Shown here: positions 128 through 51,299 of the stretch, piece after piece
Position numbering within the stretch: position 1 is the stretch's first letter
Layout: each line of letters starts with the position of its first letter
Assembly: GCA_017438525.1 (NCBI GenBank)
Contig: JAFRVI010000004.1
Coordinates: forward strand, 79,281 to 143,280
DNA: 64,000 nucleotides
Direction of reading: 5' to 3'
From: Clostridia bacterium
GTDB taxonomy: Bacteria > Bacillota > Clostridia > Oscillospirales > RGIG8002
The notes under the pieces: model-generated
Told to the model about the DNA's origin: nothing
What the model saw: the letters and a program-made list of their open reading frames with translations, nothing else
Database searches by the model: none
Translations under genes and position numbers: made by a program

Positions 128-141
128 AAGGAGTGAATAAG

Positions 142-18124: not shown

Positions 18125-18201
18125 TGGTCGGAGTGACGGGACTTGAACCCACGGCCTCTTGGTCCCGAACCAAGCGCTCTACCAAACTGAGCTACACCCC
18201 G
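18125..18201 (-). tRNA. tRNA-Pro (anticodon CGG), CCA encoded
   Basis: The reverse complement is CGGGGTGTAGCTCAGTTTGGTAGAGCGCTTGGTTCGGGACCAAGAGGCCGTGGGTTCAAGTCCCGTCACTCCGACCA. It folds as a cloverleaf with a 7-bp acceptor, GCTC/GAGC D-stem, CTTGG/CCAAG anticodon stem, TTCGGGA loop (anticodon CGG) and a TTCAAGT T-loop. Confidence 0.93.
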
Positions 18202-20810: not shown

Positions 20811-20844
20811 AAAACGCCCGAAGGGATCATCCTTCGGGCGTTTG
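20811..20844. terminator. Bidirectional rho-independent terminator closing the 31-kb minus-strand block
   Basis: Perfect 10-bp stem CGCCCGAAGG (20815-20824) / CCTTCGGGCG (20831-20840), flanked by an A-rich run on the 5' side and TTT on the 3' side. Confidence 0.72.
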
Positions 20845-20860
20845 ATTATGTTATCGCGAA

Positions 20861-23230
20861 TTACGCAAGGCCGCACTCGAAGCGGAGCGCGATAAGCGCG
20901 TCGGCCACGTCTACCCTGCCGTCGCCGTTCAGGTCGCCGTTTTCAACGGCTGCGAGTCCCGCAGCCGCGCGGAGTATTCCCAGCGCGGAAGGCAAGGCGG
21001 CCTTCGCCGACTTCGCGCTCGCGCTTGAAAGAAGATCGACGCCCTCGATACGGATAACCGCACCGATTGAAGCGTTAATGAACTCCAGCTTGAGTTGAGT
21101 TATTTCTCCTTCCGGAATCGCGAAGCAATACTCGCCGCTCGTTATCAGCGCGCGTTCAACCGTCACGGAGCTGTCTCCGCCGGCGGTAGTGAAGGTCGTC
21201 TTTACGGCAAAGTCGCCCGCGGTGAAATCCGGATATATCGATGCGAGTCTGAAACATATCGCGCCGTAAGTACCGGCGATTTCAGGCAGGTTATCAAACG
21301 TAACCGACGCATCGGCGGAACCGCAGTAGACGTCAAGAACTCCATCGTTCAACGCTACGGCCGCGGAAGAAACGCCGAAAGAGTCCGCGTTGGCCGCAAC
21401 AAGACCGAATTCTTCAGCGGACAGAGGTATACGCACGAGCGAGTCTATCTTACTAAGCAGGTCAAGTTTCGCGGTATATCTGTCGGCCCTTGTAACAGCC
21501 GCCTTGAAAGTTTCAAACGACGTTTCAAACGCCGAGAAGCTTGCGGCGGTGTACTCATAGGCGTCCTTGCCGGAAGCGAGCCCGAGGACCTCGTAATAAT
21601 TCATTCCCTCATCAACTTTATAAGCATGTATGAAGTCAAGCTTGATCGTGGATTTCGCAGTGCATCCTTCCGTTGAGAACTTGAAAGTATCCAGGCCGAC
21701 CGCGTTCTCTGCTGTTATCGCGGGTTCAAAATCCGAATACGGAAGAAGGATTTCGCCGTATTCGTTCTTCATATCCTCCGTGACGGTGATCGAAGCGGAG
21801 AAATCGGTTCCCTTGCCGACGGTAAGCTCGAAGGAGTTGTCGCCGAGGCCCGATCCGATGAGCACAAATCCGTCGTAAGCGGAAAGATCGGCGCTGCCGC
21901 CGTTCTTAAGCTTGAACGGAGTCGCGAGAGGAGCGGTGACGGTGAGTGCGAAGCCGACCCTTGCGTTTGCCATAACGACCAGCGAGCCCTTAGAGCACAT
22001 AGCGGTTACCGCGGAGTTGTTCGCGGACGTGGTTTCAAGCGTGACGCCGGAAACGTGGCTGTTCTTCTTGATATTTGTGAACGACCAGGAAGAGAAAGAG
22101 TTCAACTCGTCAACGATATAATCGTCAGCGAAGGACATCGGAGCGGAATCAAGCGCGAAATCATGAACGCCCACAGAGGTCGCAATAAACTTAGGTACGT
22201 CCGTGCTTCTGTGTTCGCCTGTGAGCGCGGAAGCGTTCTTACCGTAGGTATAAAGCGCGGTATTCAAAGCGCTGGTGCCGTATCTCTTGAAGCATGAGTT
22301 GGTGGTGTTGCCTGAATTCGGCCTGTCGTTGAGCTTCAGCTCACCGGCTTCGGCGTCGCCGGCTACGACGAGAAGCGTATCGGGATGCTCGTCGACGTAC
22401 GCTTTGGCGAGTCCGACGACTTCGTCAAACTTAACGAGTTCTTCAACCATCTTAGTCATGTTTCTCTCAAAGCAGTACTTATCAATAAGTCCGCCTTCGG
22501 CAACGAGGAAGAATCCGTTTTCATTTTCAAGCAGTTCCGTTGCTTTTGAGAACATAGCGGAAAGCGTCGGCACCTGATATCCCGTGTCGAACGAATAGTT
22601 GCTGAACGCTCCGAGGATCTTCTTGTCAAGCGTGAGCTCGGCAAGTCTTCCGGGAGAAGTTACGTAGTTATATCCCGCGGCTTTGATTTCGGCTCTGTAA
22701 TTATCAAAGTACTTCGAGCCGCCGCCGAGGAAAAGATCGATCCCGCTGGCAATCTCCTGACGGGCTATCCCGTAGAGATCGGATTTCAGAGGATTATGCA
22801 CGGCGAAAGCGGCGGGAGTTGCATCGTTCAGGTACTTGTCGGTTATAACGCCTATCTTCTTGCCCGCTTCGCGCAGAGCTTCGGTAATAAGCCGCACCGA
22901 GTTACCCTCATGATCGATGCCGAGGTTGTAATTCAGCGTCCTCTTGCCGGTGGAAAGCGCAGTCGCGGCAGCAGCCGGATCTGCAATCGCGTTATCGGAG
23001 TTCGTCGTTTCCAGCGTGCCGGTGTAGGTCAAATCCAGCAGATTGAGCTGTCTGCCGGTCTTGATCTTAGCCGCGGTAACGTGCGCCGGACTTACGCCGC
23101 TGGCGATAAGCAGAATGACGTTCTTTGCCGTGAGGTCGGTCTGGGGCGCTTCGGCGCCGACGCCTATACCCGCAAACAGCGAAAGAACGAGCACGAGCGC
23201 AATGATGAACGATGCTGATCTTTTAAGCAT
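20861..23230 (-). CDS. Secreted alkaline-phosphatase-fold protein with degenerate active site, unassigned central region and a C-terminal single dockerin-like segment
   Basis: Signal peptide is present. The N-terminal ~330 aa are collinear with PhoA-type alkaline phosphatase (NVILLI..G, DPAAAATALSTGKRT, NDATPAAF, FFLVAEGGLIDK, LLVVAGDAE), but key catalytic residues are substituted. The C-terminus is NGDLNGDGRVDVADALIALR. A GGAGG RBS precedes the start. Confidence 0.72.
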   Translation of the reverse strand: MLKRSASFIIALVLVLSLFAGIGVGAEAPQTDLTAKNVILLIASGVSPAHVTAAKIKTGRQLNLLDLTYTGTLETTNSDNAIADPAAAATALSTGKRTLNYNLGIDHEGNSVRLITEALREAGKKIGVITDKYLNDATPAAFAVHNPLKSDLYGIARQEIASGIDLFLGGGSKYFDNYRAEIKAAGYNYVTSPGRLAELTLDKKILGAFSNYSFDTGYQVPTLSAMFSKATELLENENGFFLVAEGGLIDKYCFERNMTKMVEELVKFDEVVGLAKAYVDEHPDTLLVVAGDAEAGELKLNDRPNSGNTTNSCFKRYGTSALNTALYTYGKNASALTGEHRSTDVPKFIATSVGVHDFALDSAPMSFADDYIVDELNSFSSWSFTNIKKNSHVSGVTLETTSANNSAVTAMCSKGSLVVMANARVGFALTVTAPLATPFKLKNGGSADLSAYDGFVLIGSGLGDNSFELTVGKGTDFSASITVTEDMKNEYGEILLPYSDFEPAITAENAVGLDTFKFSTEGCTAKSTIKLDFIHAYKVDEGMNYYEVLGLASGKDAYEYTAASFSAFETSFETFKAAVTRADRYTAKLDLLSKIDSLVRIPLSAEEFGLVAANADSFGVSSAAVALNDGVLDVYCGSADASVTFDNLPEIAGTYGAICFRLASIYPDFTAGDFAVKTTFTTAGGDSSVTVERALITSGEYCFAIPEGEITQLKLEFINASIGAVIRIEGVDLLSSASAKSAKAALPSALGILRAAAGLAAVENGDLNGDGRVDVADALIALRFECGLA

Positions 23231-24083
23231 TTTCTTTTCCTCCTTGGATACTTGCTGCGTTAATTGTGTTTTTTAATAACATAACCCTCGTCATGGGGCC
23301 TACGCCGCCAGGGACGGGTGTGATACACGACGCTTTTGCGGCGCAGGAGTCGAACTCGCAATCGCCGCGGAGCTTGCCGTCGGCGCATCTGTTGATGCCA
23401 ACGTCGATAACGACTGCCCCTTCTTTCACCATATCTCCGGTCACGAATCCGGGCTTGCCGACAGCGCAGACGAGAACGTCGGCGCCGCGCGTTATCTCCG
23501 CGAGATTTTTCGTGCGCGAATGGCACACGGTAACCGTGCCGTTCGCCTGCATAAGCAGCATTGCCATCGGCTTGCCGACGATGTTGCTGCGTCCGATCAC
23601 GACGCAGTTTTTGCCTTCAACCGATATACCGGAGAGCTTTATAAGTTCCATACACCCGGCAGGAGTACACGGAACGAACGAATAGTCGCCGGTCATTATC
23701 CGGCCGACGTTGTAATACGAGAACGCGTCAACGTCCTTTTCCGGAGCTATAAGCTGAGTTATCTCCGAATCGTCGAGACCTTCGGGAAGCGGAAGCTGAA
23801 CGAGTATTCCGTGAACCGACGCGTCGTTATTCAGCGACCGTATTATACCCGCCAGCTCTTCCCTGCCGGTATCCGCGGAGAGCGTTATGCTCTGTGAAAC
23901 TATACCGACTTCTTCGCAATCACGCTTTTTATTGCGAACGTAAACCTGCGACGCGGGATCGTCCCCGACAAGGATTACCGCGAGCTTCGGATACACGCCT
24001 TCGCTCTGCAGCGCGGAAACCTGCTTCTTGATTTCCTCTTTCAGTTTTGCGGCAAGCGCCTTGCCGTCAAGAATCGTTGCCAC
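23223..24083 (-). CDS. folD: Bifunctional methylenetetrahydrofolate dehydrogenase / methenyl-THF cyclohydrolase
   Basis: ILDGKALA...LAVILVGDDPASQVYVRNK, LP.P and GRSNIVGKPMA..L motifs. GTG start at 24083 with a GGAGGA RBS. It overlaps the lgt stop by 1 nt. Confidence 0.93.
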   Translation of the reverse strand: MATILDGKALAAKLKEEIKKQVSALQSEGVYPKLAVILVGDDPASQVYVRNKKRDCEEVGIVSQSITLSADTGREELAGIIRSLNNDASVHGILVQLPLPEGLDDSEITQLIAPEKDVDAFSYYNVGRIMTGDYSFVPCTPAGCMELIKLSGISVEGKNCVVIGRSNIVGKPMAMLLMQANGTVTVCHSRTKNLAEITRGADVLVCAVGKPGFVTGDMVKEGAVVIDVGINRCADGKLRGDCEFDSCAAKASCITPVPGGVGPMTRVMLLKNTINAASIQGGKENA

Positions 24084-25006
24084 TATTCAGCGTCCTCCGT
24101 AGGTATGTCAATAATCAGACTGTCGTCATCTTCCTGAGACAGCGACTTGCCGCGTTTGCCCCGCTTGCTTTTGATTCTGAACACTATTATCAGCACAACG
24201 GCCGTTACAAAAGTCACCGCGGCGACAACCTGCGAAATGCGGATGTTCGCAAAAAGAATCAGGCTGTCCGTACGCAGACCTTCTACGAACATACGCTCAA
24301 AGCCGTACCACGCGCAGTAAGCAAGCGCGACCTCGCCGTCAAACTTCTTGAACTTTTTATAGAACAGCCAAAGCACAAGCACTCCGATGAGACACCAGAG
24401 CGACTCGTAAAGAAACGTCGGATGCACGGGCTTCGACGAATCGAGCAGTATGCCGAATCTGTCTTTGATATCCGCGGCTTCGCTGCGGATATTCTCCGCG
24501 ACGATATTGCCGGTCATGCCCCACGGCAGACCGGTGTTGACACCGAACGCCTCCTGATTGAAGAAGTTGCCCCAGCGGCCGATGCCCTGCCCTATGAGCA
24601 ACGCGGGAGCCGCTATATCGGCGAGCTTCAGGAACGGCTGCTTCTTGACGCGGCAATATACGAACGACGCGAGGACGGCGAGGATAACTCCTCCGTAGAT
24701 TGCGAGTCCGCCTTTCCAAATGTAAAGAATGCTTATCGGGTCTTTTATATACTGATCCAGACGGAACAGAACGTAATATAAACGCGCTCCGATAAGACCG
24801 AACACCATTGCGATGATTGCAAGATCGATAAATATATCGCTCTTAAATCCCTGTTTCTTACCTTGAACGAGCACGTAAACGATCGCGAGCGCAAACCCGA
24901 GCATAATGCAGAGGGCGTACCACTTGATTTCAACCGAACCGATCTTAAAAGCGGTAGGCGAAACGTTTATCGTAATTCCGAGCCCTGGAAAGCTTACATA
25001 ATCCAT
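24083..25006 (-). CDS. lgt: Prolipoprotein diacylglyceryl transferase
   Basis: GLAIYGGVI, GRWGNFFNQEAFG and the HPTFLYESLW signature of Lgt. ATG 25006 has a GGAGGAG RBS. Confidence 0.92.
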   Translation of the reverse strand: MDYVSFPGLGITINVSPTAFKIGSVEIKWYALCIMLGFALAIVYVLVQGKKQGFKSDIFIDLAIIAMVFGLIGARLYYVLFRLDQYIKDPISILYIWKGGLAIYGGVILAVLASFVYCRVKKQPFLKLADIAAPALLIGQGIGRWGNFFNQEAFGVNTGLPWGMTGNIVAENIRSEAADIKDRFGILLDSSKPVHPTFLYESLWCLIGVLVLWLFYKKFKKFDGEVALAYCAWYGFERMFVEGLRTDSLILFANIRISQVVAAVTFVTAVVLIIVFRIKSKRGKRGKSLSQEDDDSLIIDIPTEDAE

Positions 25007-25036
25007 TATAACTCCTCCGGAGAAAAATATCAACTA

Positions 25037-26107
25037 CTAAAAAGTATCAATGAGTTTCGCGACGTAGCGCATAATGATCAGTACGTCCGAAACGGTAACG
25101 ACGCCGTCAAGATCGACGTCGGCGGCTTTACGCTGATTGGCGGTCGGCTTTTTGATACCGAGCGAATAGCGGAGCGCGAGCAGCGCGTCTTCGATATCGG
25201 TCTCGCCGTCCTTGTTCGGATCGCCGAGCGTATAGGTGGGCTTCACGACAGGGAGCTTGATATCCGCAATAAGCGGCCAGTGATCCGACGCCGCTCTGAT
25301 TGCCTCATCCCTGACCTGCGCGGTATGCAGACAGGTGGCTTCAACGCTGCAGAAGATATGGTCAACGCAGCCGCTGATGGGGTTCGGATCGGCATCAAAC
25401 AGAACGTTGCTGTTAGCGATATTCTGATACGGTACCTCGTCGATCGTGGCATTCATATCGCCGGTTGAAATAAACGGGCACTTGTTTTTACTGAGCCAGC
25501 TCTGCGCCTTTTTGATCAGCTCGCCCGCCTGAATGGTTCTCTGCGGAGTATTGTCGCCGCCGGAACCTTCCCAGCCGGAATTGAGGTGAGTCGAGCTTAC
25601 CGCGAACTTTCTGCCGTCGGTCTTGCTCTCGAACAGAGCTATACACATATGGCGCATCTGTATGGCGTTGGATACCGAATACTTATAAAGCTCGGTCTTG
25701 ACGACGTTGTATTTTGTCTTATCATACAAAAGCAGAGAGCAGTTTTCATCGTCCCCCTCTCTTTCGAGATCAGGATAGATAAATTCATACTTATCGCCGA
25801 GCAGTTCGCGGATACCCTCGTGCCAAAGCTTTGAGCACTCTTGCAGACCGACTACGTCCGGTTTGTAATAATTGACAAAATCGGCGAATAACTGCGGACG
25901 TGTGCCAATATTCCACGGGCTCCAGCTGAAGTCTTCCTTTGCGACGAGCACGTTATACGAAATGATTCGTATATCCGCCCCTTCGGCCAGCTGCTCGGGA
26001 TACGTCCCGACGTAGCCGTCGGCGGAAGCGGAAATCGCCGCAGCCGCGGGAAAAGCGGTCAGCAGCAGCGTCAGCGAAAGCAATACTGCAATGATTCTTC
26101 TTTTCAT
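25037..26107 (-). CDS. Secreted EEP (endonuclease/exonuclease/phosphatase) family enzyme with C-terminal dockerin (EEP copy 1)
   Basis: Signal peptide is present. EEP motifs are IISYNVL, GLQEC, STGDMN and SDHWPL. A two-segment dockerin, DPNKDGETDIEDALLALR ... DVDLDGVVTVSDVLIIMR, lies at 25040-25228. Confidence 0.8.
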   Translation of the reverse strand: MKRRIIAVLLSLTLLLTAFPAAAAISASADGYVGTYPEQLAEGADIRIISYNVLVAKEDFSWSPWNIGTRPQLFADFVNYYKPDVVGLQECSKLWHEGIRELLGDKYEFIYPDLEREGDDENCSLLLYDKTKYNVVKTELYKYSVSNAIQMRHMCIALFESKTDGRKFAVSSTHLNSGWEGSGGDNTPQRTIQAGELIKKAQSWLSKNKCPFISTGDMNATIDEVPYQNIANSNVLFDADPNPISGCVDHIFCSVEATCLHTAQVRDEAIRAASDHWPLIADIKLPVVKPTYTLGDPNKDGETDIEDALLALRYSLGIKKPTANQRKAADVDLDGVVTVSDVLIIMRYVAKLIDTF

Positions 26108-30912: not shown

Positions 30913-33900
30913 TTATTGTTCAAAGGGAGCGTCAATCTTCGCGGCGACGCGAAGGATGCGGAGCACGTCGGAAACTGTCACTTCGCCGTCTTTGTCGACG
31001 TCGGCGGCCTCCGCCTGATAGCCCTCCGGCTCGACGATCCCGAGTGCTATGCGGAGCGCCGTGAGCGCGTCGGTAACCGTGACTTCTCCGTCGTCGTCAA
31101 CATCACCAATAGTGTACGGAGGAGGCGTCGTATCGACGACCGTGAAGGTCACGGTCGTTTTATACTCGTCGTAGCCGTTTATAACTTCGAGCGTGTATTC
31201 GCCGGGCTCGGTCACGTCGGCGTGTCTGTAGCACGCTTCGCCGTTGAGGTATCCGATGTGTCCGTTTTCCCACGTCGCTGAAACGGGCGCTTCATAGAGG
31301 TCGTAGGTCGCGCCGTCTTCGACTCCGTGAACGATGGGAGCGCCTATCGGAACAAATATAAACTTTGTCGGATACGACTCGGCGTAAGTCTGCGCATAGC
31401 TTCCCTCGACGCCGTAGATCTTGGCAAGGTATTTTGTGTGCAGATCGCTTACGTTATTGTCTACAAAACTGTAAATACCGCCGCTTATGGAAGTTACGCT
31501 CTCGGGAATATAAACAGCTTCGAGAAGATACTGAGAAGAAATATTGAGCGAGAGACTTTGTATTCCGTCAGCAACGATTATTTCTCTTACGCGCGACATA
31601 CCGGAAAGAGCGCCGCTTGCGATACCCGATCCGGAGTTGAGCTTTATAGTTCCGACGCCGGCGTTGTTAAAAGCGTTGGAACTGACGGTCGTGCCGGCGG
31701 GAATATCAACGACGCTGAGCAGTCTGCATCTGCTGAAAGCGTACTGTTCTATCTTTTCAAGTCCTGCGGGGAACTTTATCTCGCGCAGAGACCAGCAGTT
31801 ATAGAATGCGTAACTGCCGATAACCTTAAGCGTGTCGGGAAGCGTAACGGCCATATGCATAACGTTGGTTCCGTAGCCGTCGAAAGCATAAGAACCGATC
31901 TTGGTGACCGGGTACCCCTCTATCTCACTCGGAACAACGACGTTGCGCCTTCCGGAGATGCACTTCGTTATCGTGACCTCTCCGTCCTTTATAGAATAGA
32001 GGAATCCTTCCGCGGCGGTAGCGTCACCGTTGACGGCAGCGCTTGCCTTCGGGAACGCCTTGTTGGAATCAAGGCCGACAAGTTCGAACTCGAATACGCC
32101 TGCTTCCGCCATCTTGACCTTGAAATCGTAACGGCAATACGCCTCAATTTCGTCGTTTTCATTATAATCCATAAAGAATCCGGCGTCGTCCGCGGGAATA
32201 AGCTCGCTTGTGCCGTCATCGGTATTCGTAATCTTAAGCGCGAGATCCGCGTATTCCGGAGACGCTCCTGCAGTAACGTAGACGAACGCGTTTTTATTGA
32301 CGGTAACGCTCGGCGGCGTCGTGTATCTGTCGGGAGAAACGCTGATGAATTCGTCGGTCTTCGCCGTTCCGCCGATGCCGGTATACGCCTTGTAGATCAT
32401 CTGCGGAGTAGCATACTTCAAGCCGGCAATCTTCGCGGCGTAAGCGTATTCGGGCGTGGTCTTGTCCGCGCAGTTGCTCATGGCAAGCTTAAGCTGCGTT
32501 TTGTCGTACTGCTTAGGAAGATCCCACTTCTGCACCGCGTACGGATCGGTACGAGTGGTGAACATAACGTAATCGTCCTTATACGGCGAAAACTTGATGC
32601 GGGAAAGAATGAAACCCTCGCCGTTCTCGTCGGTCTCTCCCGCTTTCAGCGTTTCGAGATATGTGCCGTCTGCGGCGAAAAGCTTCGCGCCGCCGTCATA
32701 GGAAGCGACGGCGATATATTTGCCTTCCGTCGAATAGGTCGCCTCGCGGATGACATTGCCGAAGCCGCCGAGCAGCGAGATAAGCTCTCCGCTCTCGACC
32801 TCAAACAGACGCGCGGCGCCGTAGGTCGCGGTCGCGAGGACGTTCTTATCGTCCGGCGAGAAGACTACGCGCCTTACCGAGCCGGAGTTGACGTTGTTGA
32901 GCTTCTTGTTGAGCGAAAGATCGGAAACGTTCCAGACGTTTATGACGCCCTTGTCGTCGGAAGTCACGAGCAGGCTGCCGTCCGAAGAAAAGTCGGCGCC
33001 GCGGATCGCTCCGTCGTGGCCTTCGGTTATATGGCCGTATTCGCTCCAGTCGGAAACGTTATAGATGAACGTGCCGTTGCTTGTTGTAGTTACCGCTACT
33101 TTAGAACCGTCGTCGGAGAGCGCTATGAAGCGCGGATCGCTGCCGACGTCTATATCCTGAAGCTTCGCGCCGCTCGAGGCGTCAAAGACGCGGAAATGCC
33201 ACTTTTCAGTTTTGCCGCCGGTCTGCGGATTCTGATACGCCTGCGAGCCGCCGTTGTAACCGCCGACTATCAGGTATTTACTGTCCGGCGTAAACAGAAC
33301 GTTCTCTTGAATAACGGCGCCGTTATAGATTCTGACCGGCGTGTTATCGTAATTGGAAGTATCATAAATCTGTATGCATCCCTGCGTATTTGCGACAGCG
33401 AGTTTCGTGGCATCCGGCGAATACAGAACGCGGAAGGATCTGGTGTACTTAGACATCGCAGAAGCAAGGTTGATGTATTTGAGTGTTTCTCCGGTATACG
33501 GATCGAATATGTAGAGATTTGAGAAATGATCCGCCGCGGCGCCTTCGTTGCCGTAGCAGTTGATATCCATCGGCATATTGATATCCCACGCGTCGTTGGT
33601 GGCAACGGCCTCTATGCCGGATGAATAGTTGACGCTGTCGTCAGTCGTGAAGTCGACGGTATTATCGCTCATTTCACCGGCTTCAAGATAGCATCTGACG
33701 TAGTCTATCTGGGTTTCGTATTTATCCTCGAGACCCCACGCTTCTCTGACGATGCTTGCGCCGTCGCCTTTGGTGGAGTTATTTATGATGATATATCTTG
33801 CGATATCTCCGAAGGCGAATTCCTTGCCTTCGCTGTTTATCACGAGCGAATTGTACTGCATCCCGTCAAAGTAGAATCTTATCTGATCGCGATCCATCTC

Positions 33901-35691
33901 CACGCCATAGGTGTGGAATTCATCGCTGAGATACTTTTCTCCGTAACCGTAGATACCCATATAATGGACTTTTGACCAGTGAGTATATCCGTCGTCGGTA
34001 GTCCAGTGTATCGTGCCGATCTGCGTGCCGTTTTCCCTGATATCATCCGTGACGACGATCTCCATAATATCGATCTCGCCGCCGCCCATATTCATCATAT
34101 CGGTCGGCATCATCCAGAACGCTGGGAACTGACCGTTGCCGTAAGCAAGCTTTGCGCGTATCTCGACCTTGCCGTAACTCAAAGCGAACCTGCCGCTGGT
34201 GCTCATATAAGTGCCCTGCATTTCAAAAGCGCCGTATCTGTCAGGTGTGACGGTCATATTCAGCATACCGTCCGAAACCTTGAGCTGCTCGTCGTCATCG
34301 GTGTGCATAGTTGAAACTGTTCCGCCGAACCAGAAGCCGTCATCAACGGACCACTTATTGCGGTCGAGCTCATCGCCGTCGAATTCGTCGCTCCAGCTCT
34401 GAACGTATTCGGTTTCCACCGTCTCATAAAGCTCAAACTTTTTGTACGCGGACCCTGTTGTTGCCTTTACGGTGTCCCCGGCGGTGGTAAGCTTGCCGAC
34501 GTTACGCACTTGTATAGTAGCTTTGCCGCCGGAAATGCTTATTGACCACTCTTGAAGGGTATTGTTGAGATTCGGCTCTTTCGCTTCAATGCTGCCTCCG
34601 GATCCGGAGATGGTGAGCGTGTTCGTACTCGACTTATTGATAAACCTGAAGGTTCCGTTGCCGGACGGAGACGGCGAAAGCTGCCACATCTGAGTGCGGT
34701 CGCCTTCCCTGTTTTCCTGAAGGGAATACTTGAGATTACTGTCTTCAATGGCAAGAGTATTATCCCATCTTATCGCAGTTTCAGCGACCTCCGGTCCGAG
34801 CGTAATGGCCTTGCCGCTCGTGGGCTCGATTATTTTATAATAAGCGTTGTTGTTGATCTGATTGCGTGAAACGACCTTCGTTTCGGAATAAGCCGTGCGG
34901 GTGCTGCCTTCGATGATCTCATTGTAGGCGTTGAGATCCGCAAATCTGAAAGAGTCAACGCCTACTGCACGGATAGACAGCATATTCAAACTGCCGTCCT
35001 TGATAATGCTATCGCCTTTGAAGCAGTCAAAAGGAACGTGGATATATCCGGTTTCCGCAACGTAAACATCTTCTGCCGTTGAAAAACTGACGCCGTCGTA
35101 GGAAAGGTATCCGAGCACAATAGTCAGTGTCGCGGGCGCATCGACAGAAACCCAAAGCTTCAATCCGTCCGCCTTAGTCATATCCTTCCCGAATGGCGAA
35201 GCCGTGTGCATGGCGTTAATATCGGGCGTTTCATTCGAGAAGAAGGCGCTGCCGTCACTTCCGGGAACAGATATCGAGAAAGCGGCTTCTGCAGGTTTAT
35301 TTACAGCGTCAATGACCGGGACGCCGCTGCAAGCCGTCATCATAGAAAGCGCTGCTTCGTCCCAGACATCGATCCCGTCGAGCGCAATCTGCTCATAGGC
35401 ATACATCTGCGCAAGCGAATCGACCGCAAAGCGAAGCGCTTCACTCGCGGCGGCAACGTCGTCTTCAGTCGCATAATCGTTATATACGACTGCTTCCGCA
35501 CGCTGCACACGGTCGGCAAGATATTTGCGCGACTGCTCGCCGTAGCCCTTGTAGATAAGCGCTTTTGCGCTCATCACCTGCTCCTGAAGCTCCGAAGTGT
35601 CAATAGCTTTAGCTGAAATGACGCCCGAAAGAGTCGCAAGTGACATAAGAAGGGTTAGAGTAAGGATAATCGCTATAAGCTTTCTTTTCAT
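30913..35691 (-). CDS. Giant secreted multidomain protein, paralogue 2 of 4 (same architecture)
   Basis: Collinear with paralogue 1. GH16 motif EIDIME is at 34060-34077 and the dockerin at 30916-31110. ATG 35691 with a GGAGGG RBS is preferred over the TTG at 35709. Confidence 0.85.
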   Translation of the reverse strand: MKRKLIAIILTLTLLMSLATLSGVISAKAIDTSELQEQVMSAKALIYKGYGEQSRKYLADRVQRAEAVVYNDYATEDDVAAASEALRFAVDSLAQMYAYEQIALDGIDVWDEAALSMMTACSGVPVIDAVNKPAEAAFSISVPGSDGSAFFSNETPDINAMHTASPFGKDMTKADGLKLWVSVDAPATLTIVLGYLSYDGVSFSTAEDVYVAETGYIHVPFDCFKGDSIIKDGSLNMLSIRAVGVDSFRFADLNAYNEIIEGSTRTAYSETKVVSRNQINNNAYYKIIEPTSGKAITLGPEVAETAIRWDNTLAIEDSNLKYSLQENREGDRTQMWQLSPSPSGNGTFRFINKSSTNTLTISGSGGSIEAKEPNLNNTLQEWSISISGGKATIQVRNVGKLTTAGDTVKATTGSAYKKFELYETVETEYVQSWSDEFDGDELDRNKWSVDDGFWFGGTVSTMHTDDDEQLKVSDGMLNMTVTPDRYGAFEMQGTYMSTSGRFALSYGKVEIRAKLAYGNGQFPAFWMMPTDMMNMGGGEIDIMEIVVTDDIRENGTQIGTIHWTTDDGYTHWSKVHYMGIYGYGEKYLSDEFHTYGVEMDRDQIRFYFDGMQYNSLVINSEGKEFAFGDIARYIIINNSTKGDGASIVREAWGLEDKYETQIDYVRCYLEAGEMSDNTVDFTTDDSVNYSSGIEAVATNDAWDINMPMDINCYGNEGAAADHFSNLYIFDPYTGETLKYINLASAMSKYTRSFRVLYSPDATKLAVANTQGCIQIYDTSNYDNTPVRIYNGAVIQENVLFTPDSKYLIVGGYNGGSQAYQNPQTGGKTEKWHFRVFDASSGAKLQDIDVGSDPRFIALSDDGSKVAVTTTSNGTFIYNVSDWSEYGHITEGHDGAIRGADFSSDGSLLVTSDDKGVINVWNVSDLSLNKKLNNVNSGSVRRVVFSPDDKNVLATATYGAARLFEVESGELISLLGGFGNVIREATYSTEGKYIAVASYDGGAKLFAADGTYLETLKAGETDENGEGFILSRIKFSPYKDDYVMFTTRTDPYAVQKWDLPKQYDKTQLKLAMSNCADKTTPEYAYAAKIAGLKYATPQMIYKAYTGIGGTAKTDEFISVSPDRYTTPPSVTVNKNAFVYVTAGASPEYADLALKITNTDDGTSELIPADDAGFFMDYNENDEIEAYCRYDFKVKMAEAGVFEFELVGLDSNKAFPKASAAVNGDATAAEGFLYSIKDGEVTITKCISGRRNVVVPSEIEGYPVTKIGSYAFDGYGTNVMHMAVTLPDTLKVIGSYAFYNCWSLREIKFPAGLEKIEQYAFSRCRLLSVVDIPAGTTVSSNAFNNAGVGTIKLNSGSGIASGALSGMSRVREIIVADGIQSLSLNISSQYLLEAVYIPESVTSISGGIYSFVDNNVSDLHTKYLAKIYGVEGSYAQTYAESYPTKFIFVPIGAPIVHGVEDGATYDLYEAPVSATWENGHIGYLNGEACYRHADVTEPGEYTLEVINGYDEYKTTVTFTVVDTTPPPYTIGDVDDDGEVTVTDALTALRIALGIVEPEGYQAEAADVDKDGEVTVSDVLRILRVAAKIDAPFEQ

Positions 35692-35750
35692 AATCGTCCC
35701 TCCGTTCAAAGCGTTGAGAATAATTAAATGATAGTACTTAATTATAGGGT

Positions 35751-38700
35751 TTATCTGTTTGCTATGCCCGCGGCAATTCGCAGAATCCTCAAAGCGTCGG
35801 AAACTGTCACGGCACCGTCGCCGTCAACGTCGGCAACGGCGAGCGCATCTCCTTCCGGTTGATCGGCAAGACCGACAGCCATACGGAGTGCGGCAAGAGC
35901 GTCCGCAACGGTAACTTCATCGTCGCCGTCTATGTCACCGATGAGCACGTAGGCGATTATCGTGACGTCAAAGGTGTCGGTGAATCCGTTATAGGTAACA
36001 GTCAGTGTCTGCGATCCTACGACGGTGTTATCAAAGCCATCGACCATTTCAGCCGTGAGATCGACTTCTTCGGATGAACCGTTATCGTAAGTGACCGTTA
36101 CCTTTCCGCCGGACAGGTCGAGCTCTTCCCTGCCCTCAACGTATTCTACCTTTTCGGGCGCGGTAACTTCGATGCCGGTGATCTGCGGCATTGCGGTCAA
36201 TTTGAAATCGCCGATGAGCGGATAGTGATCGGACGTTCCCTGGAGGTCAGCGTCGGTCACGCGCGCGGTGAAAAGGCATTCGGTGCCTACGGTGTGGAAG
36301 ATGTGGTCGACAACGCCGGGATCCGGATGATCGTCGGCGTCGACAAATACTCCGCTGTTCACGATAGTATTATAAGGAATATCGCCGGCCGGGCAGTTCA
36401 TATCACCGGTGGAAATGAAGGGGCAGTTCCACCGGTTGATATATTCTCTCGCCTTAACGACGAGCTCACCCGCCTGAATGTTTCTTTGCTCGGTGTGATC
36501 GTCGTCGTCCCAGCCCGGATCGAGGTGCGTAGAGCTGACTATGAATCTTCTGCCGTCGCTGATGCGCTCGAAAACGCCGATGTCGATAAGGCGGAATCTC
36601 GGGCTGTTGCCTATCGTGTAGGAATAGACTTCGCTCGCGATAACGCGGAGCTTGGTCTTGTCATATATAATCGGGCTGCAGTTCATACCTGCCTGACCGC
36701 CGAAATCGGGGTTGAGGAACTCGTAGGTATCGCTGAGCAGACGGTTGATGCCCTCGTGCCACTTCTCGGAGCATTCCTGCAGACCGACGACGTCGGGCTT
36801 GTAGTAATCGATAAACGCCTTGAACTTCTCAGGTCTTTCGCCGATCACCCAGGGGCTCCAACTGAAGTCTTCCTGTGCAACGAGCACATTGAAAGATACT
36901 ATTCTGATATCGGCGCCTTCAACGAGCTGCTCGGGGTATTCGCCGAAATAACCGCTGCCGTCTCTGTGAATGATCTCAACGTCGTCGATATATATGGCGC
37001 TGCCGTCGGGGGAGCTGCCCGCGGAGAAGTTGACGTACCAGTCGGAATAGTCGCCGCTGTTGAATGCGATGGCATAGCGTCTCCATTCGTCAGTCAACGC
37101 TATCGAATTGGAACAAAGCTTCTCCTTGTCGCCGAAAACGTAGCTGTGATACTGCTTCGTTCCGCCGGCTTCGGAGTCCCACTTCGCCCAGAAGATCAAG
37201 ATGTATTCGGTGTTCTTTGTGAGAATCAGACCGGTCTGCTTGGCAACGCTCTGATAGTAGCTGCTGCCCATTAGGCGAAGCGAATGTCCGCCTTCGTGAG
37301 CAACGTCGCTGAGAGCGGTCGTGCCGCCGGTGGTCCAGGGAGAGTATCCGTTCTCTTCAAATCCGCCGTTTCTAATAAGTATCTCGTCGGGCTTCTCTTC
37401 AAGTACGACGTCATCGATTATCATACCGGCTCCGTCGGGCGAGCTGGAGGCGGAGAAGTTGATATAGCAGGAAGTAACGTCGCCGCTGTTAAATGAAATT
37501 GTGTGGAAAGTCCACTCAGAAGGTATCGCTATGTACTCGCTCACGATCTTGGTTCCGCCCGCGTCATAAACTCCGGCGTGGTATCCCTTCGAGCCCTGGG
37601 CGGTCTGATCGCCCTTCGCCCAGAAGGAAAGGATATAATCGGTGTTCGGCTTTATGGTGATGCCGCTCTGCCTTGCGGCTTTAGCATATGAACCCGTAGC
37701 GAGAAGGCAAAGCGCCTTTTCGCCCGAATGAGCGTCCACGGTGACTGCGGTGTTCTCGTAAAGCGTCCAGGGGTCTACGGTCGCGGCTTCAAAGTTGCCG
37801 TTCTTAACAAGCGTTGTGTCTGCAGAAACTTCCATAGCAAAATCATCAACTACCACGGCGCTGCCGTCGGGCGAGCTGCCGGCTGAAAAATGGATGTAAC
37901 ACTCGGTAAAGTCACCGCTGTTGAATCTGACGGTATAGAGTGTCCAATCATTAGTGATATCTATCGTCTTGTCGGTAAACTTGTTATCCTGTCCGGAGCT
38001 TCCGCCGAAAACGTAGGCGTGATATGGCTTTGCTCCGGTGCTGGTCTCGGCGGCTTTTGCCCAGAAGGTGTAAACATAATCGGTATTCGGCTCAATCTTC
38101 AATCCCATCTGCCTGGCAACCTTCGCATAATAAGATGAGCCGGAGAGGATCAGCGCCTTGCTTCCGGTATGAGCGTCGGAAGTTATCGCGCTGCCGTTGA
38201 AGATTTCCCACGGGTCGATGGCGGCGTTCTCAAAACCGCCGTTTTTGATTATAGCTGCATCGACAACGACCTTCTCTTCCATAAACAGATCATCGATGAC
38301 GATAGCAGTGCCGTCCGGCGAGCTGCCGGTCGAGAAATTGATATAGCAGGAAGTAAAATCTCCGCTGTTGAACTCAATGGTATACTGCCTCCATTCAGCA
38401 GTGGGAGAGAAAGAATTATCAGCAAGCTTGTTGCTGCTGTTGCCGAAAACGTAGGCGTGGTAGCCCTTCGTACCGGTGTTGTCGGAAGCCGCCTTCGCCC
38501 AGAAAGTGAATGTGTAGTCCGTATTTGCATTAAGGGCGATGCCTTCTTGCCTTGCAACCTTTGTGTAGTTGCCGGATCCGGCAGGCACCTTCAGGCAGAG
38601 CGCTTTGCTTCCCTCGTGCGCTTCGGTAGTGAGCGCGGTTTCGGAATAAATGAGCCACGGATCGATGGTGGCGTTCTCAAAACCGCCGTTCTTAATCATC

Positions 38701-39698
38701 GCGTCGTCAACGACGACCTTCTCTTCCATAAACAGATCGTCTATGATAAGCGCGGTGCCGTCGGGCGAGCTGCCGGTCGAGAAGTTTATGAAGCAGGAAG
38801 TGAAATCGCCGCTGTTGAACTCAATGGTGTACTGCATCCACTCGGTAGTTACGGCGATGGAGTTCTGCGCAAGTCTGTTGCTGCTGTCGCCGAAAACGTA
38901 GGCGTGATAGCCCTTCGTTCCGGTGTTGTCGGAAGCCGCCTTCGCCCAGAAGGTGAAAACGTAGTCCTTATTCGCCTCGATAGCTATGCCGTTCTGTCTG
39001 GCGACCTTGGTGTAGTTCGCGGAGCCGGCGGGAGCTTTAAGGCAGAGCGCCTTGGCGCCCTCGTGCGCTTCCGCAGTGAGCGCGGTTTCGGAATAAACGA
39101 GCCACGGATCGATGGTGGCGTTCTCGAAGCCGCCGTTCTTGATCATGGCGGTGTCGGGATCCTCGACCTTCTGCATAACGAGGTCGTCAATAACGGCGAT
39201 ACCGCCGTCCGGCGCGCTGGGAGTGGATATATTGATATAGCACTCGGTAAAATCGCCGCTGTTGAAATCGACCGTGTATTCTCTCCAATCGGAGGTAAGG
39301 CCGAAATAAACGGTTCCTATCTTGGTAGCGCCGCTTTTATCCATAATATACATATGGAAACCCTTGGAAGCGCCCTGGGCGGAATTCGACGCGACCTTCG
39401 CCCAGAAGGTAAAGGTGTAATCCTTATTCGCCTCAAGAGCGATACCGGTCTGTCTGGCTACCTTTTCGTATTTGTTTGAGCCGAAAAGACTCAACGCGTT
39501 GCTGCCGGTATGCGCTTCGGTAGACAGCGTCGTGCCGGAATAGATGAGCCATCCGTCCGTGCCGTCTTCAAAACCGCCGTTGACGATAAGGTTATCGCCG
39601 GTGGTCTTCGCCGCCGCAGGCAGCGACACGGCGCAAAGCGTTGCGATCATAGTGAACGCAATAAGCGCCGCAAGGATTCTTTTGATGCCGGTTTTCAT
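35751..39698 (-). CDS. Secreted protein: six tandem CBM4/9-like modules + EEP catalytic domain (copy 2) + Ig-like (Big_3-like) module + dockerin
   Basis: 1,315 aa with a signal peptide. It carries six ~145-150-aa units, each starting (I/V)(K/R/V)NGGFE...W and ending SSPDG....IDD. EEP motifs are VSFNVL, GLQEC, STGDMN and SDHYPL (36198-36947). The Ig-like module is ITGIEVTAPEKVEYVEG..LDLSGGKVTVTY (35955-36185). The dockerin is at 35754-35945. Confidence 0.85.
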   Translation of the reverse strand: MKTGIKRILAALIAFTMIATLCAVSLPAAAKTTGDNLIVNGGFEDGTDGWLIYSGTTLSTEAHTGSNALSLFGSNKYEKVARQTGIALEANKDYTFTFWAKVASNSAQGASKGFHMYIMDKSGATKIGTVYFGLTSDWREYTVDFNSGDFTECYINISTPSAPDGGIAVIDDLVMQKVEDPDTAMIKNGGFENATIDPWLVYSETALTAEAHEGAKALCLKAPAGSANYTKVARQNGIAIEANKDYVFTFWAKAASDNTGTKGYHAYVFGDSSNRLAQNSIAVTTEWMQYTIEFNSGDFTSCFINFSTGSSPDGTALIIDDLFMEEKVVVDDAMIKNGGFENATIDPWLIYSETALTTEAHEGSKALCLKVPAGSGNYTKVARQEGIALNANTDYTFTFWAKAASDNTGTKGYHAYVFGNSSNKLADNSFSPTAEWRQYTIEFNSGDFTSCYINFSTGSSPDGTAIVIDDLFMEEKVVVDAAIIKNGGFENAAIDPWEIFNGSAITSDAHTGSKALILSGSSYYAKVARQMGLKIEPNTDYVYTFWAKAAETSTGAKPYHAYVFGGSSGQDNKFTDKTIDITNDWTLYTVRFNSGDFTECYIHFSAGSSPDGSAVVVDDFAMEVSADTTLVKNGNFEAATVDPWTLYENTAVTVDAHSGEKALCLLATGSYAKAARQSGITIKPNTDYILSFWAKGDQTAQGSKGYHAGVYDAGGTKIVSEYIAIPSEWTFHTISFNSGDVTSCYINFSASSSPDGAGMIIDDVVLEEKPDEILIRNGGFEENGYSPWTTGGTTALSDVAHEGGHSLRLMGSSYYQSVAKQTGLILTKNTEYILIFWAKWDSEAGGTKQYHSYVFGDKEKLCSNSIALTDEWRRYAIAFNSGDYSDWYVNFSAGSSPDGSAIYIDDVEIIHRDGSGYFGEYPEQLVEGADIRIVSFNVLVAQEDFSWSPWVIGERPEKFKAFIDYYKPDVVGLQECSEKWHEGINRLLSDTYEFLNPDFGGQAGMNCSPIIYDKTKLRVIASEVYSYTIGNSPRFRLIDIGVFERISDGRRFIVSSTHLDPGWDDDDHTEQRNIQAGELVVKAREYINRWNCPFISTGDMNCPAGDIPYNTIVNSGVFVDADDHPDPGVVDHIFHTVGTECLFTARVTDADLQGTSDHYPLIGDFKLTAMPQITGIEVTAPEKVEYVEGREELDLSGGKVTVTYDNGSSEEVDLTAEMVDGFDNTVVGSQTLTVTYNGFTDTFDVTIIAYVLIGDIDGDDEVTVADALAALRMAVGLADQPEGDALAVADVDGDGAVTVSDALRILRIAAGIANR
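36960..39602 (-). repeat. Six tandem in-frame coding repeats (~430-450 bp each) encoding CBM4/9-like modules
   Basis: Repeat boundaries from the translation: residues 33-182, 183-331, 332-480, 481-627, 628-770 and 771-913. Units 2 and 3 are nearly identical at protein level and share long identical DNA stretches. Confidence 0.9.
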
Positions 39699-39752: not shown

Positions 39753-40586
39753 TTATTCCAAATTGAAATCGGCGTATAAAGGAAGGTGGTCCGAAGCGCC
39801 TTTGACGCTCTCGTCGTCGCCGAGCGTGACGCCGAGCGATTTCGCGCCGGAGGTGTGAAAGATGTGATCGACGACGTGCGGAAGCGGAGCGGCATCGGCG
39901 TCGCTGAAAACTCCGTTTTCCGTCAGAGCTTTGTATTCGGGCTTATCCGGCGTTATGTTCATATCGCCGGTGGAGATATACGGGCAACCGTATTCCTCAA
40001 CGAAACGCTTTGCGACCCCGATGAGCTCATCGATCTGCACGAGGCGTTCGGCGGTCCTGTCGCCCGGGTACTCCGAATCGAGATGCGTGCTCGAAACGGC
40101 AAAACGCTTACCGTCGGATATACGCTCGAAAACGCCGACGTCGATAAGACGCATACGCTCGTTGTTTGAAACGGAATAGATATACTGTTCGCTCGCAATA
40201 AGGCGGAGTTTTTTCACGTCGAACATCAAACCGGTGCAGCTGCCGTCCGTAATGTCGCCGAAGTCCGGCTCTACGAAATCGTATTCTTCTTTAAGCTGTT
40301 TTCTGAACGCCGAATACCAGCCGCGGCTTGCCTCCTGGATGCCGATAACGTCCGGTCTGACGCGCAGGATATACTCGACCGCGCCGCTCGGACGATCGCC
40401 CAAAGGGGTGCCCCAATCGTAGTCGTCGTTGTCTACGAGCAGGTTATAAGACATAACCCGCAAAACCGCGTTTTCCGACTCCGGATTTGGTTTTTTCCCT
40501 GTTAAAAAACACGTCATTATTCCGAATCCCAACAAAAGCAGAATTACTATAGTCAACACGATATGGTTGACAAACGGCTTTTTCAT
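39753..40586 (-). CDS. Membrane-anchored EEP family enzyme (copy 3, N-terminal TM helix, no dockerin)
   Basis: N-terminal TM segment IVLTIVILLLLGFGIMTCFL. EEP motifs are MSYNLL, GIQEA, STGDMN and SDHLPL. The central segment RLIDVGVFERISDGKRFAVSSTHLD is nearly identical to copy 2. Confidence 0.8.
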   Translation of the reverse strand: MKKPFVNHIVLTIVILLLLGFGIMTCFLTGKKPNPESENAVLRVMSYNLLVDNDDYDWGTPLGDRPSGAVEYILRVRPDVIGIQEASRGWYSAFRKQLKEEYDFVEPDFGDITDGSCTGLMFDVKKLRLIASEQYIYSVSNNERMRLIDVGVFERISDGKRFAVSSTHLDSEYPGDRTAERLVQIDELIGVAKRFVEEYGCPYISTGDMNITPDKPEYKALTENGVFSDADAAPLPHVVDHIFHTSGAKSLGVTLGDDESVKGASDHLPLYADFNLE

Positions 40587-40594
40587 AGGCGTTA

Positions 40595-41716
40595 TTACTT
40601 CTTCGAGTAGAGATAGAGCAAACCGGCCGCAAGAGCAAGACCGATAAGGACCGCGATAGCGACACGCAGCGCGGATACCGGCGACTTTCCGCCGACCTTT
40701 CCGGTTTCGCCGTTGACCATGAATTGAAATATCTTCTCTTTAAATTTGAACGAAGAAAGCCATACGGGCAGCAACAGGTATTTATACTTAATATCGAAAT
40801 ACTTAGTCGCCATTCTGACGTTGTTGACGTGATCGGCGTGGTGCGCTCTGCGGACTTGATCAGTAATATCGGATTCAAGGCGGGAGGAAATGAAACCTTT
40901 TCCCTTCTCCCACGCGTCGTTGAGCCCGATGGAATAGCGCTCGGAAATGAATCCCGCTATGTATTCGGGCTTGTACTTCTTATTATTCGCGGTATCATAC
41001 GGCTCGATCGAACGAAGCGTCGCCTCGTTATAACGCGTGGTGCCGCAGACGGCCTGATCGTCTATGAAGCAGGAATAATGCCCGGAGGTGTTGTACCACG
41101 TCGTGGTTGTGTGAGTATTTCCGTTGCTGTCTGTGTATGTGTGGTCAATGCCGTAGCGGGCGGTATAGTCCGTCTCGGTCTGTGAATCGAACGTCCAGTA
41201 AGGCAGATAAACGCCTTTGAAAGATTCGGGTCGGGCGCTCTGCTTCGCTTTTGACGGGCAGAAAAGCTTTTTCTTGATCCACGCGGTGAATCTTTCGCCT
41301 GCGGTCTTCGCGTCGATCCTGAAGGGGCAAACGCCGCCCGGGGCAAGCGTGTTGACCGCGGCCTCCTCCATAACCTGATTCGAGCCGCAGTAGGGGCATA
41401 CGTCAGCTATCTGCAGCGCGTCGTAAATCGATTCGCCGCCGCAGGATTTGCAGATGACGGTCTTCTTCTCGACGCCCCAGTCGCAGTTTCCCCTTTCGGC
41501 CGCCGAGTAGAAATCCTGCTCCATGCAGCGTTCCTCGTTCGACTCATGAGGCGGTATCGCCTGCTGATGCCCGCAGTACGGACAAAGCAGTCCGCCGGAA
41601 ACCGGATCGAAATCCATAACGCCGCCGCAGGACGGACACTTCTTGTCCGTCTCTTCCCTCGTTGTCGTTTGCTGGATCACTTCGACTTCATTGTTGTACT
41701 CGTTAACGTCGCTCAC
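40595..41716 (-). CDS. Tail-anchored protein with two N-terminal zinc ribbons (function unknown)
   Basis: CPSCGG...CPYCG and CKSCGG...CPYCG motifs. A single C-terminal TM helix (AIAVLIGLALAAGLLYLY) lies 3 residues from the end. I prefer GTG 41716, 8 nt after GGAGG. The ORF-track start is the TTG at 41743. Confidence 0.65.
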   Translation of the reverse strand: MSDVNEYNNEVEVIQQTTTREETDKKCPSCGGVMDFDPVSGGLLCPYCGHQQAIPPHESNEERCMEQDFYSAAERGNCDWGVEKKTVICKSCGGESIYDALQIADVCPYCGSNQVMEEAAVNTLAPGGVCPFRIDAKTAGERFTAWIKKKLFCPSKAKQSARPESFKGVYLPYWTFDSQTETDYTARYGIDHTYTDSNGNTHTTTTWYNTSGHYSCFIDDQAVCGTTRYNEATLRSIEPYDTANNKKYKPEYIAGFISERYSIGLNDAWEKGKGFISSRLESDITDQVRRAHHADHVNNVRMATKYFDIKYKYLLLPVWLSSFKFKEKIFQFMVNGETGKVGGKSPVSALRVAIAVLIGLALAAGLLYLYSKK

Positions 41717-41757
41717 TTGGTGTTCCTCCAGACTATTTTTCAAATATTATTTATAAA

Positions 41758-51243: not shown

Positions 51244-51299
51244 ATCAGTCACCCCGTTAAATCAGTCTTTCAATCCGTTCGGTTAAAGCGGAAAAAGAA

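Follow-up and report, generated by a model that had tools for sequence, protein, structure and literature searches.

A probable pseudo-phosphatase of the alkaline phosphatase family with a single-loop dockerin-like tail from an uncultured ruminant-gut Clostridia lineage

Compact alkaline phosphatases (APs), including TAB5 AP (2IUC), the cold-active AP of Shewanella (3A52) and lipoprotein APs of approximately 380 amino acids (aa) from Oscillospirales, were the described proteins closest to the product of an AP-like gene found in a 64,000-nucleotide (nt) stretch of contig JAFRVI010000004.1 from a Clostridia bacterium (referred to as the window). The AP-like protein and the compact APs share a fold of approximately 330 residues at 23-38% identity, the same order of motifs and secretion from the cell. 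They differ in that the residues equivalent to Asp51, Ser102, His331, His370 and His412 (E. coli PhoA numbering is used for reference positions) are replaced in the AP-like protein, Arg166 is represented by Lys, and approximately 430 extra residues follow at the C-terminus.

The end of this C-terminal extension is similar to the group 2 dockerins of R. flavefaciens (PMC12270676; PDB 9GVB), which are likewise C-terminal modules of about 40 aa with one dockerin-type calcium loop followed by a helix on a non-CAZyme protein, and in both cases the host belongs to the Clostridia of the rumen and has full dockerins on its other secreted proteins. These natural single-loop modules of about 40 residues are high-affinity ligands of the ScaE cohesin, each cohesin taking up two of them, and they target their proteins to the cell surface; some artificially halved dockerins likewise keep full affinity (PMC12270676). 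The group 2 modules, which are homologous to group 4 dockerins, are built as loop, helix, loop and an extra helix C-terminal to the binding helix, whereas the AP-like tail is built as helix 1, loop 2 and helix 3, its second helix lying N-terminal to the loop. AP domains are also joined to a dockerin or an EEP (Exo_endo_phos) domain in other secreted Firmicutes proteins, namely P0023, an AP with a complete dockerin scoring 59 bits, and the AP-EEP fusions P0032 and P0034. Unlike the AP-like family, these keep Asp51, Ser102, His331 and His370, and their existence indicates that APs are recruited to dockerin systems and cooperate with EEP enzymes.

Within the AP superfamily, selection on an enzyme fold with an altered or degenerate catalytic site is exemplified by PbgA/YejM, which has a chiefly regulatory role and reportedly retains metal binding and some activity (PMC7576196). 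PbgA/YejM is a membrane-anchored Gram-negative protein of the sulfatase/LtaS branch, whereas the AP-like protein belongs to PF00245 proper, is secreted and has another architecture. The C-terminal extension of the Cry1A protoxin, which likewise runs from beta-roll through helical bundle to beta-roll, provides a further comparison. This extension and the xylanases bearing carbohydrate-binding modules (CBMs) have a jelly-roll CBM-type fold as seen in the C-terminal 380 residues of the AP-like protein (4W8J, 8W7N, 6KKA, 4QAW, 4QPW), a likeness at the fold level of 8-14% identity with no sequence or profile homology and no transferable ligand-binding residues. The literature searched contained no described non-catalytic member of PF00245, no pseudoenzyme in a cellulosome context and no precedent for a pseudo-AP or for a dockerin joined to an AP, absence there being no proof. 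What is new in the AP-like protein is the architecture; the elements in it, a pseudoenzyme domain and a truncated dockerin, are of known kinds.

The N-terminal part of the protein matched Pfam PF00245 (Alk_phosphatase; residues 35-294, 138 bits, E=5e-40) and, in a phmmer search of the PDB, 3a52 (E=6e-32). An AlphaFold2 model was built from the family alignment (mean predicted local distance difference test score, pLDDT, of 86.7; 88.0 for a second model), and Foldseek superposed its N-terminal domain on TAB5 AP (2iuc) with a target-normalised TM score of 0.85 (E ~1e-26), so that the modelled AP fold is complete to about residue 360 with no truncation. The score against the NCBIfam AP equivalog (NF007810 / PRK10518) was 95 bits, below the cut-off of 540.

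An earlier sequence-only reading of the window had proposed, by eye, that the AP motif GDGMG had become ASGVS, DSAAS had become DPAAA, IDxxxH had become IDKYCF and DHE had become DAE while DATPAA (Asp153, Thr155) was retained. Each of these equivalences was reproduced in three independent alignments, made by HMMER against solved APs, by MAFFT with 12 AP homologues (most of them catalytically intact) and by MAFFT with 38 Oscillospirales lipoprotein APs, and they correspond to Ser44 for Asp51, Pro85 for the nucleophile Ser102 (codon CCG, exactly at 22976-22978), Phe254 for His331 and Ala293 for His370. Two changes had been overlooked, Thr319 for His412 and Lys149 for the phosphate-binding Arg166, the latter being Lys in sixteen family members and Arg in three. 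The Zn1 site (Asp327, His331, His412) is left with just Asp250 (Asp327) and the Zn2 site (Asp51, Asp369, His370) with just Asp292 (Asp369). At the Mg site Thr138 (Thr155), Glu245 (Glu322) and the second-shell Asp136 (Asp153) are invariant and Asp51 is Ser44; across the alignments the protein keeps Asp101, Asp153, Thr155, Glu322, Asp327 and Asp369. A nucleophile or ligands located elsewhere in the sequence would have overturned the assignment. Profile, multiple and structural alignments all placed Pro at the nucleophile and non-ligands at His331, His370 and His412, and the domain holds no alternative set of His residues.

The claim that the phosphotransfer machinery is dismantled was upheld for the nucleophile and the two zinc sites and proved too broad for the rest, as the loss is selective: no member departs from Thr155 and Glu322, two of the three Mg-site ligands, or from the nearby Asp153, Asp101 and Asp369, and the Arg166 position stays basic. 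The active-site pocket thus reads as remodelled and not abandoned. Since Asp51 and all three His ligands are replaced, the two-zinc centre cannot form, and since the Ser of the covalent phospho-intermediate is also Pro, phosphomonoester hydrolysis by the AP mechanism should be impossible as judged from sequence and structure model, from which we infer an absence of phosphatase activity. Of the features expected of an AP enzyme, the protein has the fold and lacks the nucleophile, both zinc sites, Arg166 and an equivalog-level score. With the fold kept, the catalytic residues gone and the gene under purifying selection, it corresponds to the operational definition of a pseudoenzyme, and we consider it highly probable that it is not a functional AP and is maintained by selection. 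The protein and its orthologues are named 'alkaline phosphatase' by NCBI (MBQ6552136.1, MBQ9557005.1, MBO4584404.1), a name that is probably an over-annotation because the nucleophile and zinc ligands are missing. Counts of phosphatase genes in rumen metagenomes made by Pfam or by name will take in this family.

Seventeen full-length relatives of approximately 790 aa were identified at 46-95% identity in a search of 5.8 billion proteins, all from metagenome assemblies, beyond which scores fell steeply to ordinary APs matching the AP domain alone. A profile of the C-terminal module run against 1.84 billion representatives returned only four proteins at E<=1e-30, including a distant full-length member (P0121). 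The pairing of this module with other N-terminal domains was considered and rejected, the matches at that threshold being family members alone and a further eight being weak and unconvincing. The family as a whole comprised 19 sequences from ruminant-gut Clostridia metagenome-assembled genomes (MAGs) and metagenome assemblies.

No zinc-ligand His survives in any of the 19 members and the Asp51 position is Ser in all of them. Asp101, Ala103, Asp153, Thr155, Glu322, Asp369 and the Glu that follows (Glu371) are invariant, as are the family-specific Ser44 and Ser47 adjacent to the old nucleophile, and Asp327 varies among Asp, Glu and Asn. The nucleophile position itself drifts among Pro, Ala, Ser and Asn within an invariant flanking motif. 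The sole conserved His in the AP domain is H50, which is also His in some active APs, so the missing zinc ligands are not supplied from elsewhere. Non-family AP homologues, by comparison, kept Asp51, Ser102, Asp327, Asp369 and His370 in 103 of 103 sequences, which puts the losses in the family well outside chance, and His331 in 98 of 103; the His412 column of this hmmalign alignment was unreliable and was disregarded. The pattern is that expected in the aftermath of the loss of a two-zinc centre, in which the zinc ligands are gone, the nucleophile is free to vary and the shell of the Mg site is apparently retained. Read as an unrooted series, the family is graded: the zinc ligands are lost in every member, and the nucleophile position holds Ser in one sequence, Ala in three, Asn in a single one and otherwise Pro. 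The gradation suggests an order in which a two-metal site was dismantled while selection on the fold and the Mg shell continued.

Approximately 38 additional loci that matched family peptide patterns were considered as further degenerate APs and rejected, as L003-L040 encode ordinary lipoprotein APs of approximately 380 aa with all catalytic residues, apart from L036, which is degenerate, and L038, in which the open reading frame is truncated in the later motifs. These compact APs are widespread, occurring in Acutalibacteraceae, Faecousia, Oscillospiraceae and Ruminococcus MAGs, share a conserved N-terminal GWYTEGEI segment and have Gly at the Asp153 position. In L036 (3006-4136; Bacillota MAG FM_56_G125_V) Asp51 is replaced by Ser, Asp101 by Asn, His331 by Gln and His412 by Asn, and Arg166 is lost, with Ser102 and His370 kept; P0022 has Gly for Asp101 and Thr for His331. 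Both are unrelated to the family and appear partly degenerate independently, so that loss of catalytic residues in APs may be recurrent.

Comparison of the gene with its orthologues in two MAGs by the Nei-Gojobori method gave ratios of nonsynonymous to synonymous substitution (dN/dS) that lay at 0.11-0.16 in the AP domain and at 0.12-0.17 over the whole gene, where synonymous sites were near saturation and pN was far below pS throughout. These low ratios show that the gene is maintained by purifying selection. The gene order lgt, folD, AP-like gene (with an 8-nt overlap), convergent cation-efflux gene and aldose epimerase is also present in these MAGs, from goat rumen (L001, 78% identity) and water-buffalo rumen (L002, 62% identity). 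Two further loci (L042 and L043, 48% identity) have the same order from lgt or folD through aldose epimerase, and on a short contig (L041, 46% identity) the upstream gene alone is visible. The 8-nt overlap with folD is common to all five loci, and the AP-like gene always shares the orientation of lgt and folD. With architecture, tail and gene order conserved, the family appears to be a group of orthologues inherited vertically within a single uncultured lineage of ruminant-gut Clostridia.

The sequence-only reading had described a half-dockerin at the C-terminus with one calcium loop preceded by a loopless helix, and this was accurate as a description. The final 44 residues read PSALGILRAAAGL-AAVENG-DLNGDGRVDVAD-ALIALRFECGLA, in which the single loop spans D766-D777 and the model places helices at 749-756, ahead of the loop, and at 775-785. 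Pfam Dockerin_1 (PF00404) scored 13.8 bits against a cut-off of 22.9 and covered profile positions 2-17 of 57, so that with one loop and a sub-threshold score the tail falls short of a type I dockerin; it fits the broader class of natural single-loop dockerins, with a topology of its own. The six neighbouring secreted proteins, in contrast, carry complete two-repeat dockerins of 25-40 bits with two loops each and linkers of 11-12 residues, as do their orthologues in L001 and L002. The best PDB matches of the tail were type I dockerins (E 0.0015-0.004), 9GVB being matched at E=1.4, and an alignment with CelS assigned the tail to helix 1, linker, loop 2 and helix 3; on these grounds the tail is best described as a dockerin that lacks only its first calcium loop. 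A circular permutation, in which a helix-3-like helix would be followed by repeat 1, was also considered. BLOSUM scores against the six neighbour dockerins were mixed, at four of six each way, and the CelS alignment favours simple loss of loop 1.

The single-loop tail is conserved in 19 of 19 family members, and L750, I752, L753, R754, A755, G758, D766, D770, G771, D777, A778, L779, L782 and R783 are invariant in an 18-sequence alignment from which P0121 was excluded. No single-loop tail outside the family was found in a scan of 694 kb of DNA. Given this conservation, and given that natural single-loop dockerins are functional, the truncation is not read as evidence of decay. The tail would represent a second, topologically distinct kind of naturally truncated dockerin beside that of R. 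flavefaciens.

The approximately 400 unassigned residues noted earlier are real, residues 363-745 having no Pfam match. Both models divide the region into two beta-sandwiches separated by a three-helix bundle, of which the first sandwich is, together with the AP domain, one of the two most constrained domains by pairwise dN/dS and the second is the most variable. Foldseek searches of the PDB matched this region to the C-terminal extension of Cry1A protoxin, Vip3 domains and the CBMs of xylanases and agarases at 8-14% identity, with global TM scores that were low because the domain orientations differ. The modelled sandwiches resemble jelly-roll carbohydrate-binding modules at the fold level. 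Their derivation from diverged CBM_4_9 (PF02018) was rejected at the sequence level, as hhalign gave a probability below 1% against the neighbour repeats and there was no Pfam match. A bona fide CBM_4_9 of approximately 145 aa is inserted just ahead of the second sandwich in three family members (P0005-7) and shares 44-47% identity (E=3e-44) with the six repeats of this kind in the 1315-aa EEP protein encoded in the window at 35751-39698, from which an exchange of modules between the AP-like family and the CBM-EEP protein within the lineage is indicated. This exchange is the best hint that the two proteins may act on the same material. The insert is out of register with the Pfam boundaries and consists of the second half of one repeat and the first half of the next.

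The AP-like protein is probably a conserved pseudo-phosphatase that serves as a non-catalytic extracellular binding or adaptor protein; to a binding and docking function as such we give even chances. On this reading a compact AP of the Firmicutes type gave rise to a secreted protein without catalysis, whose pocket, with Asp101, Asp153, Glu322, Asp369, Glu371, Thr155 and Lys/Arg166, probably still accommodates a single hard cation (Mg2+ or Ca2+), through which it may bind an anionic or polyhydroxylated ligand. The two CBM-like sandwiches would add glycan or surface binding and avidity, and the single-loop tail would anchor the protein to a scaffold that bears cohesins or to the cell surface, where it would sit beside dockerin-bearing EEP phosphodiesterase-like enzymes. 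The rumen is phosphate-rich, and it might be speculated that weak selection for phosphate scavenging there let the AP partner of EEP phosphodiesterases be repurposed. A more far-reaching version can be offered tentatively, and we doubt it more than we believe it: that this is the first described pseudo-AP family from PF00245 itself, with its zinc centre erased and Mg shell kept, whose pocket is a cation-dependent receptor for an anionic or phosphorylated polymer, displayed at the surface by a new single-loop dockerin topology (helix 1, loop 2, helix 3) and partnered by dockerin-bearing EEP phosphodiesterases, the whole forming a 'cellulosome-like' but non-cellulolytic assembly in an uncultured rumen lineage.

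Several points weigh against a binding or adaptor role. The binding function is one that we infer, and the former catalytic motifs could be conserved for the stability of the fold only. No cohesin is encoded in the 64-kb window, and the linkage to lgt and folD gives no functional hint. The match of the sandwiches to CBMs is at the fold level alone, with low global TM and no Pfam or CBM_4_9 homology. The topology of the tail is helix-loop-helix as against loop-helix-loop-helix in group 2, and because of this difference and the marginal sequence similarity to 9GVB the function of group 2 dockerins is not simply transferable.

The NCBI name and a Pfam AP score well over threshold would be in keeping with a genuine AP whose substitutions are artefacts of alignment, sequencing or assembly. 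We give this explanation almost no credence, as three alignment methods and the structural superposition concur, the same substitutions occur in 19 independently assembled sequences from different samples, and the shortfall on the equivalog model and the single conserved His in the domain effectively refute it. Nor is a decaying gene, functionless and on its way to becoming a pseudogene, at all credible, even if several catalytic residues are lost and the nucleophile position varies: the frame of 789 codons is intact in all members under a dN/dS of approximately 0.11-0.17, full-length conservation that includes architecture, tail, synteny and overlapping start reaches down to 39-46% identity, and a strong Shine-Dalgarno sequence and a terminator are present, so that decay is effectively refuted by the selection and conservation data.

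Harder to dismiss, although we still consider it unlikely, is that the protein remains an enzyme of another chemistry, in which a single Mg2+, Ca2+ or Mn2+ site formed by the retained acidic residues would activate water, Ser44 or Ser47 to attack a different substrate, for example a diester, a sulfate ester, a phosphonate or a glycan-phosphate. Conservation within the AP domain is highest in the motifs of the old active site, with Asp101, Asp153, Thr155, Glu322, Asp369, Glu371, Ser44 and Ser47 all invariant, and one-metal enzymes that work in this way are known in the AP superfamily. Those enzymes, however, keep the nucleophile position and a Zn2-equivalent site, whereas here the Zn2 site has lost two of three ligands (Asp51 and His370), the nucleophile and Asp327 positions vary, and with just one conserved His no residue set like that of any known superfamily active site can be assembled. 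Reviews caution that catalytic residues can have migrated in 'pseudoenzymes' (PMC10211241), and many pseudoenzymes act through association with an active paralogue (PMC5106787, PMC10211241). Given that APs form obligate dimers, it is conceivable that the AP-like protein is a dead subunit that heterodimerises with an active AP paralogue, or that it docks by EEP enzymes, and tethers or modulates its partner at the cell surface through the CBM-like domains and dockerin. Such a regulatory or scaffolding partnership is favoured by the frequency of compact, active lipoprotein APs among related Oscillospirales (L003-L040), by the AP-EEP fusions found elsewhere (P0032, P0034) and by the three EEP genes of the same run. 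Against it, neither the window nor the 20-kb loci of the two MAGs showed an active AP paralogue, and we rate the partnership as improbable to the same degree as the other chemistry. The non-catalytic binding or adaptor protein remains the preferred reading.

The AP-like ATG at 23230 lies within the final codons of folD (stop 23223-23225), an 8-nt overlap that bears out the one reported from the sequence-only reading and suggests translational coupling of the two genes. A promoter-like site of near-consensus sequence (TTGATA-17-TATAAT, 25005-25033) is located at the 5' end of lgt, and lgt, folD and the AP-like gene probably form a transcription unit starting from this site. As read from the sequence, MLKRSASFIIALVLVLSLFAGIGVGAEA at the N-terminus looks like a Sec signal peptide and has no lipobox. 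The gene was said to end a train of 31 kb, and the same-strand run indeed measures 31.2 kb from 52043, or 38.8 kb when the GH94 gene ending at 59625 is included, with a strong terminator at 20812-20843 following the AP-like stop. Rfam identified no RNA element in or near the AP-like gene, its sole match in the window being a tRNA.

Table 1 Features of the AP-like gene, its product and its neighbourhood (window coordinates; family variants are those of the 19 sequences)
Feature	Coordinates	Strand	Basis or remark
AP-like coding sequence, complete, 789 aa	20861-23230	-	NCBI MBQ6552136.1, named 'alkaline phosphatase'
Shine-Dalgarno AGGAGG within the 3' end of folD; 8-nt spacer to ATG	23239-23244	-	Sequence reading
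Putative signal peptide, residues 1-27 MLKRSASFIIALVLVLSLFAGIGVGAEA, lipobox Cys absent	23150-23230	-	Sequence reading; low-pLDDT N-terminal helix in model
AP fold, complete, residues ~30-360	22151-23143	-	Pfam, phmmer, Foldseek; pLDDT mostly 85-96
Ser44 at Asp51 (Zn2/Mg bridging ligand)	23099-23101	-	Family Ser 19/19
Pro85 (CCG) at nucleophile Ser102	22976-22978	-	Family P14/A3/S1/N1
Phe254 at His331 (Zn1 ligand)	22469-22471	-	Family F/Y/L
Ala293 at His370 (Zn2 ligand)	22352-22354	-	Family A/V/C/Y
Thr319 at His412 (Zn1 ligand)	22274-22276	-	Family T/I/Y; segment His-free
Beta-sandwich 1, CBM-like jelly-roll, residues ~370-540	21611-22123	-	Both models, Foldseek; no Pfam match
Three-helix bundle, residues ~545-596	21443-21598	-	Both models
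Beta-sandwich 2, CBM-like, most variable domain, residues ~600-736	21023-21433	-	Both models, Foldseek
Truncated dockerin-like tail, residues 746-789: helix ALGILRAAAGL, 6-aa linker, calcium loop, helix ALIALRFECGL	20864-20995	-	Pfam, model, PDB matches
Sole calcium-binding loop DLNGDGRVDVAD, D766-D777	20900-20935	-	
Intrinsic terminator, GC-rich 13-bp stem and T run, 17 nt past AP-like stop	20812-20843	-	
folD, 8 nt shared with AP-like start	23223-24083	-	
lgt	24083-25033	-	
EEP, 356 aa, with dockerin	25037-26107	-	
Four paralogous secreted giants, 1565-1598 aa	26145-30854, 30913-35709, 41758-46500, 46555-51252	-	
EEP (Exo_endo_phos), 1315 aa: six CBM_4_9 repeats, Big_3, dockerin	35751-39698	-	
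EEP, 277 aa, without dockerin, possibly membrane-anchored	39753-40586	-	N-terminus reading
382-aa protein between dockerin giants: N-terminal zinc-ribbon motifs, hydrophobic C-terminal segment like a transmembrane anchor	40595-41743	-	Sequence reading
GH94-type, 2467 aa: GH94 catalytic and supersandwich, glucoamylase-like, DUF3131; head of same-strand run	52222-59625	-	
tRNA, downstream of aldose epimerase gene	18128-18201	-	Rfam, 65.8 bits

The four secreted giants, which have orthologues in L001 and L002, share one domain set: a ricin-B lectin, a GH16/ConA-like domain, a propeller of WD40 type, BspA-type leucine-rich repeats (LRRs) and a complete dockerin of two repeats. They are an unusual non-CAZyme dockerin cargo. 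The region points to dockerin-based assemblies that carry phosphodiesterase-like and lectin, propeller and LRR proteins and not cellulases. The 356-aa and 277-aa EEP proteins keep the N-terminal SYN and C-terminal SDH motifs as read from their sequences, so the neighbouring enzymes look intact and the AP-like protein appears to be the exception. The practical importance of the family is modest, as its members are restricted to a single uncultured lineage.

The 2467-aa GH94 protein resembles giants of the cyclic beta-1,2-glucan synthase or glucan phosphorylase type. A DUF4886 protein is encoded upstream of the AP-like gene on the same strand. The window also includes spoIVA with all three domains (124-1620, plus strand), which indicates that the source organism is an endospore former.

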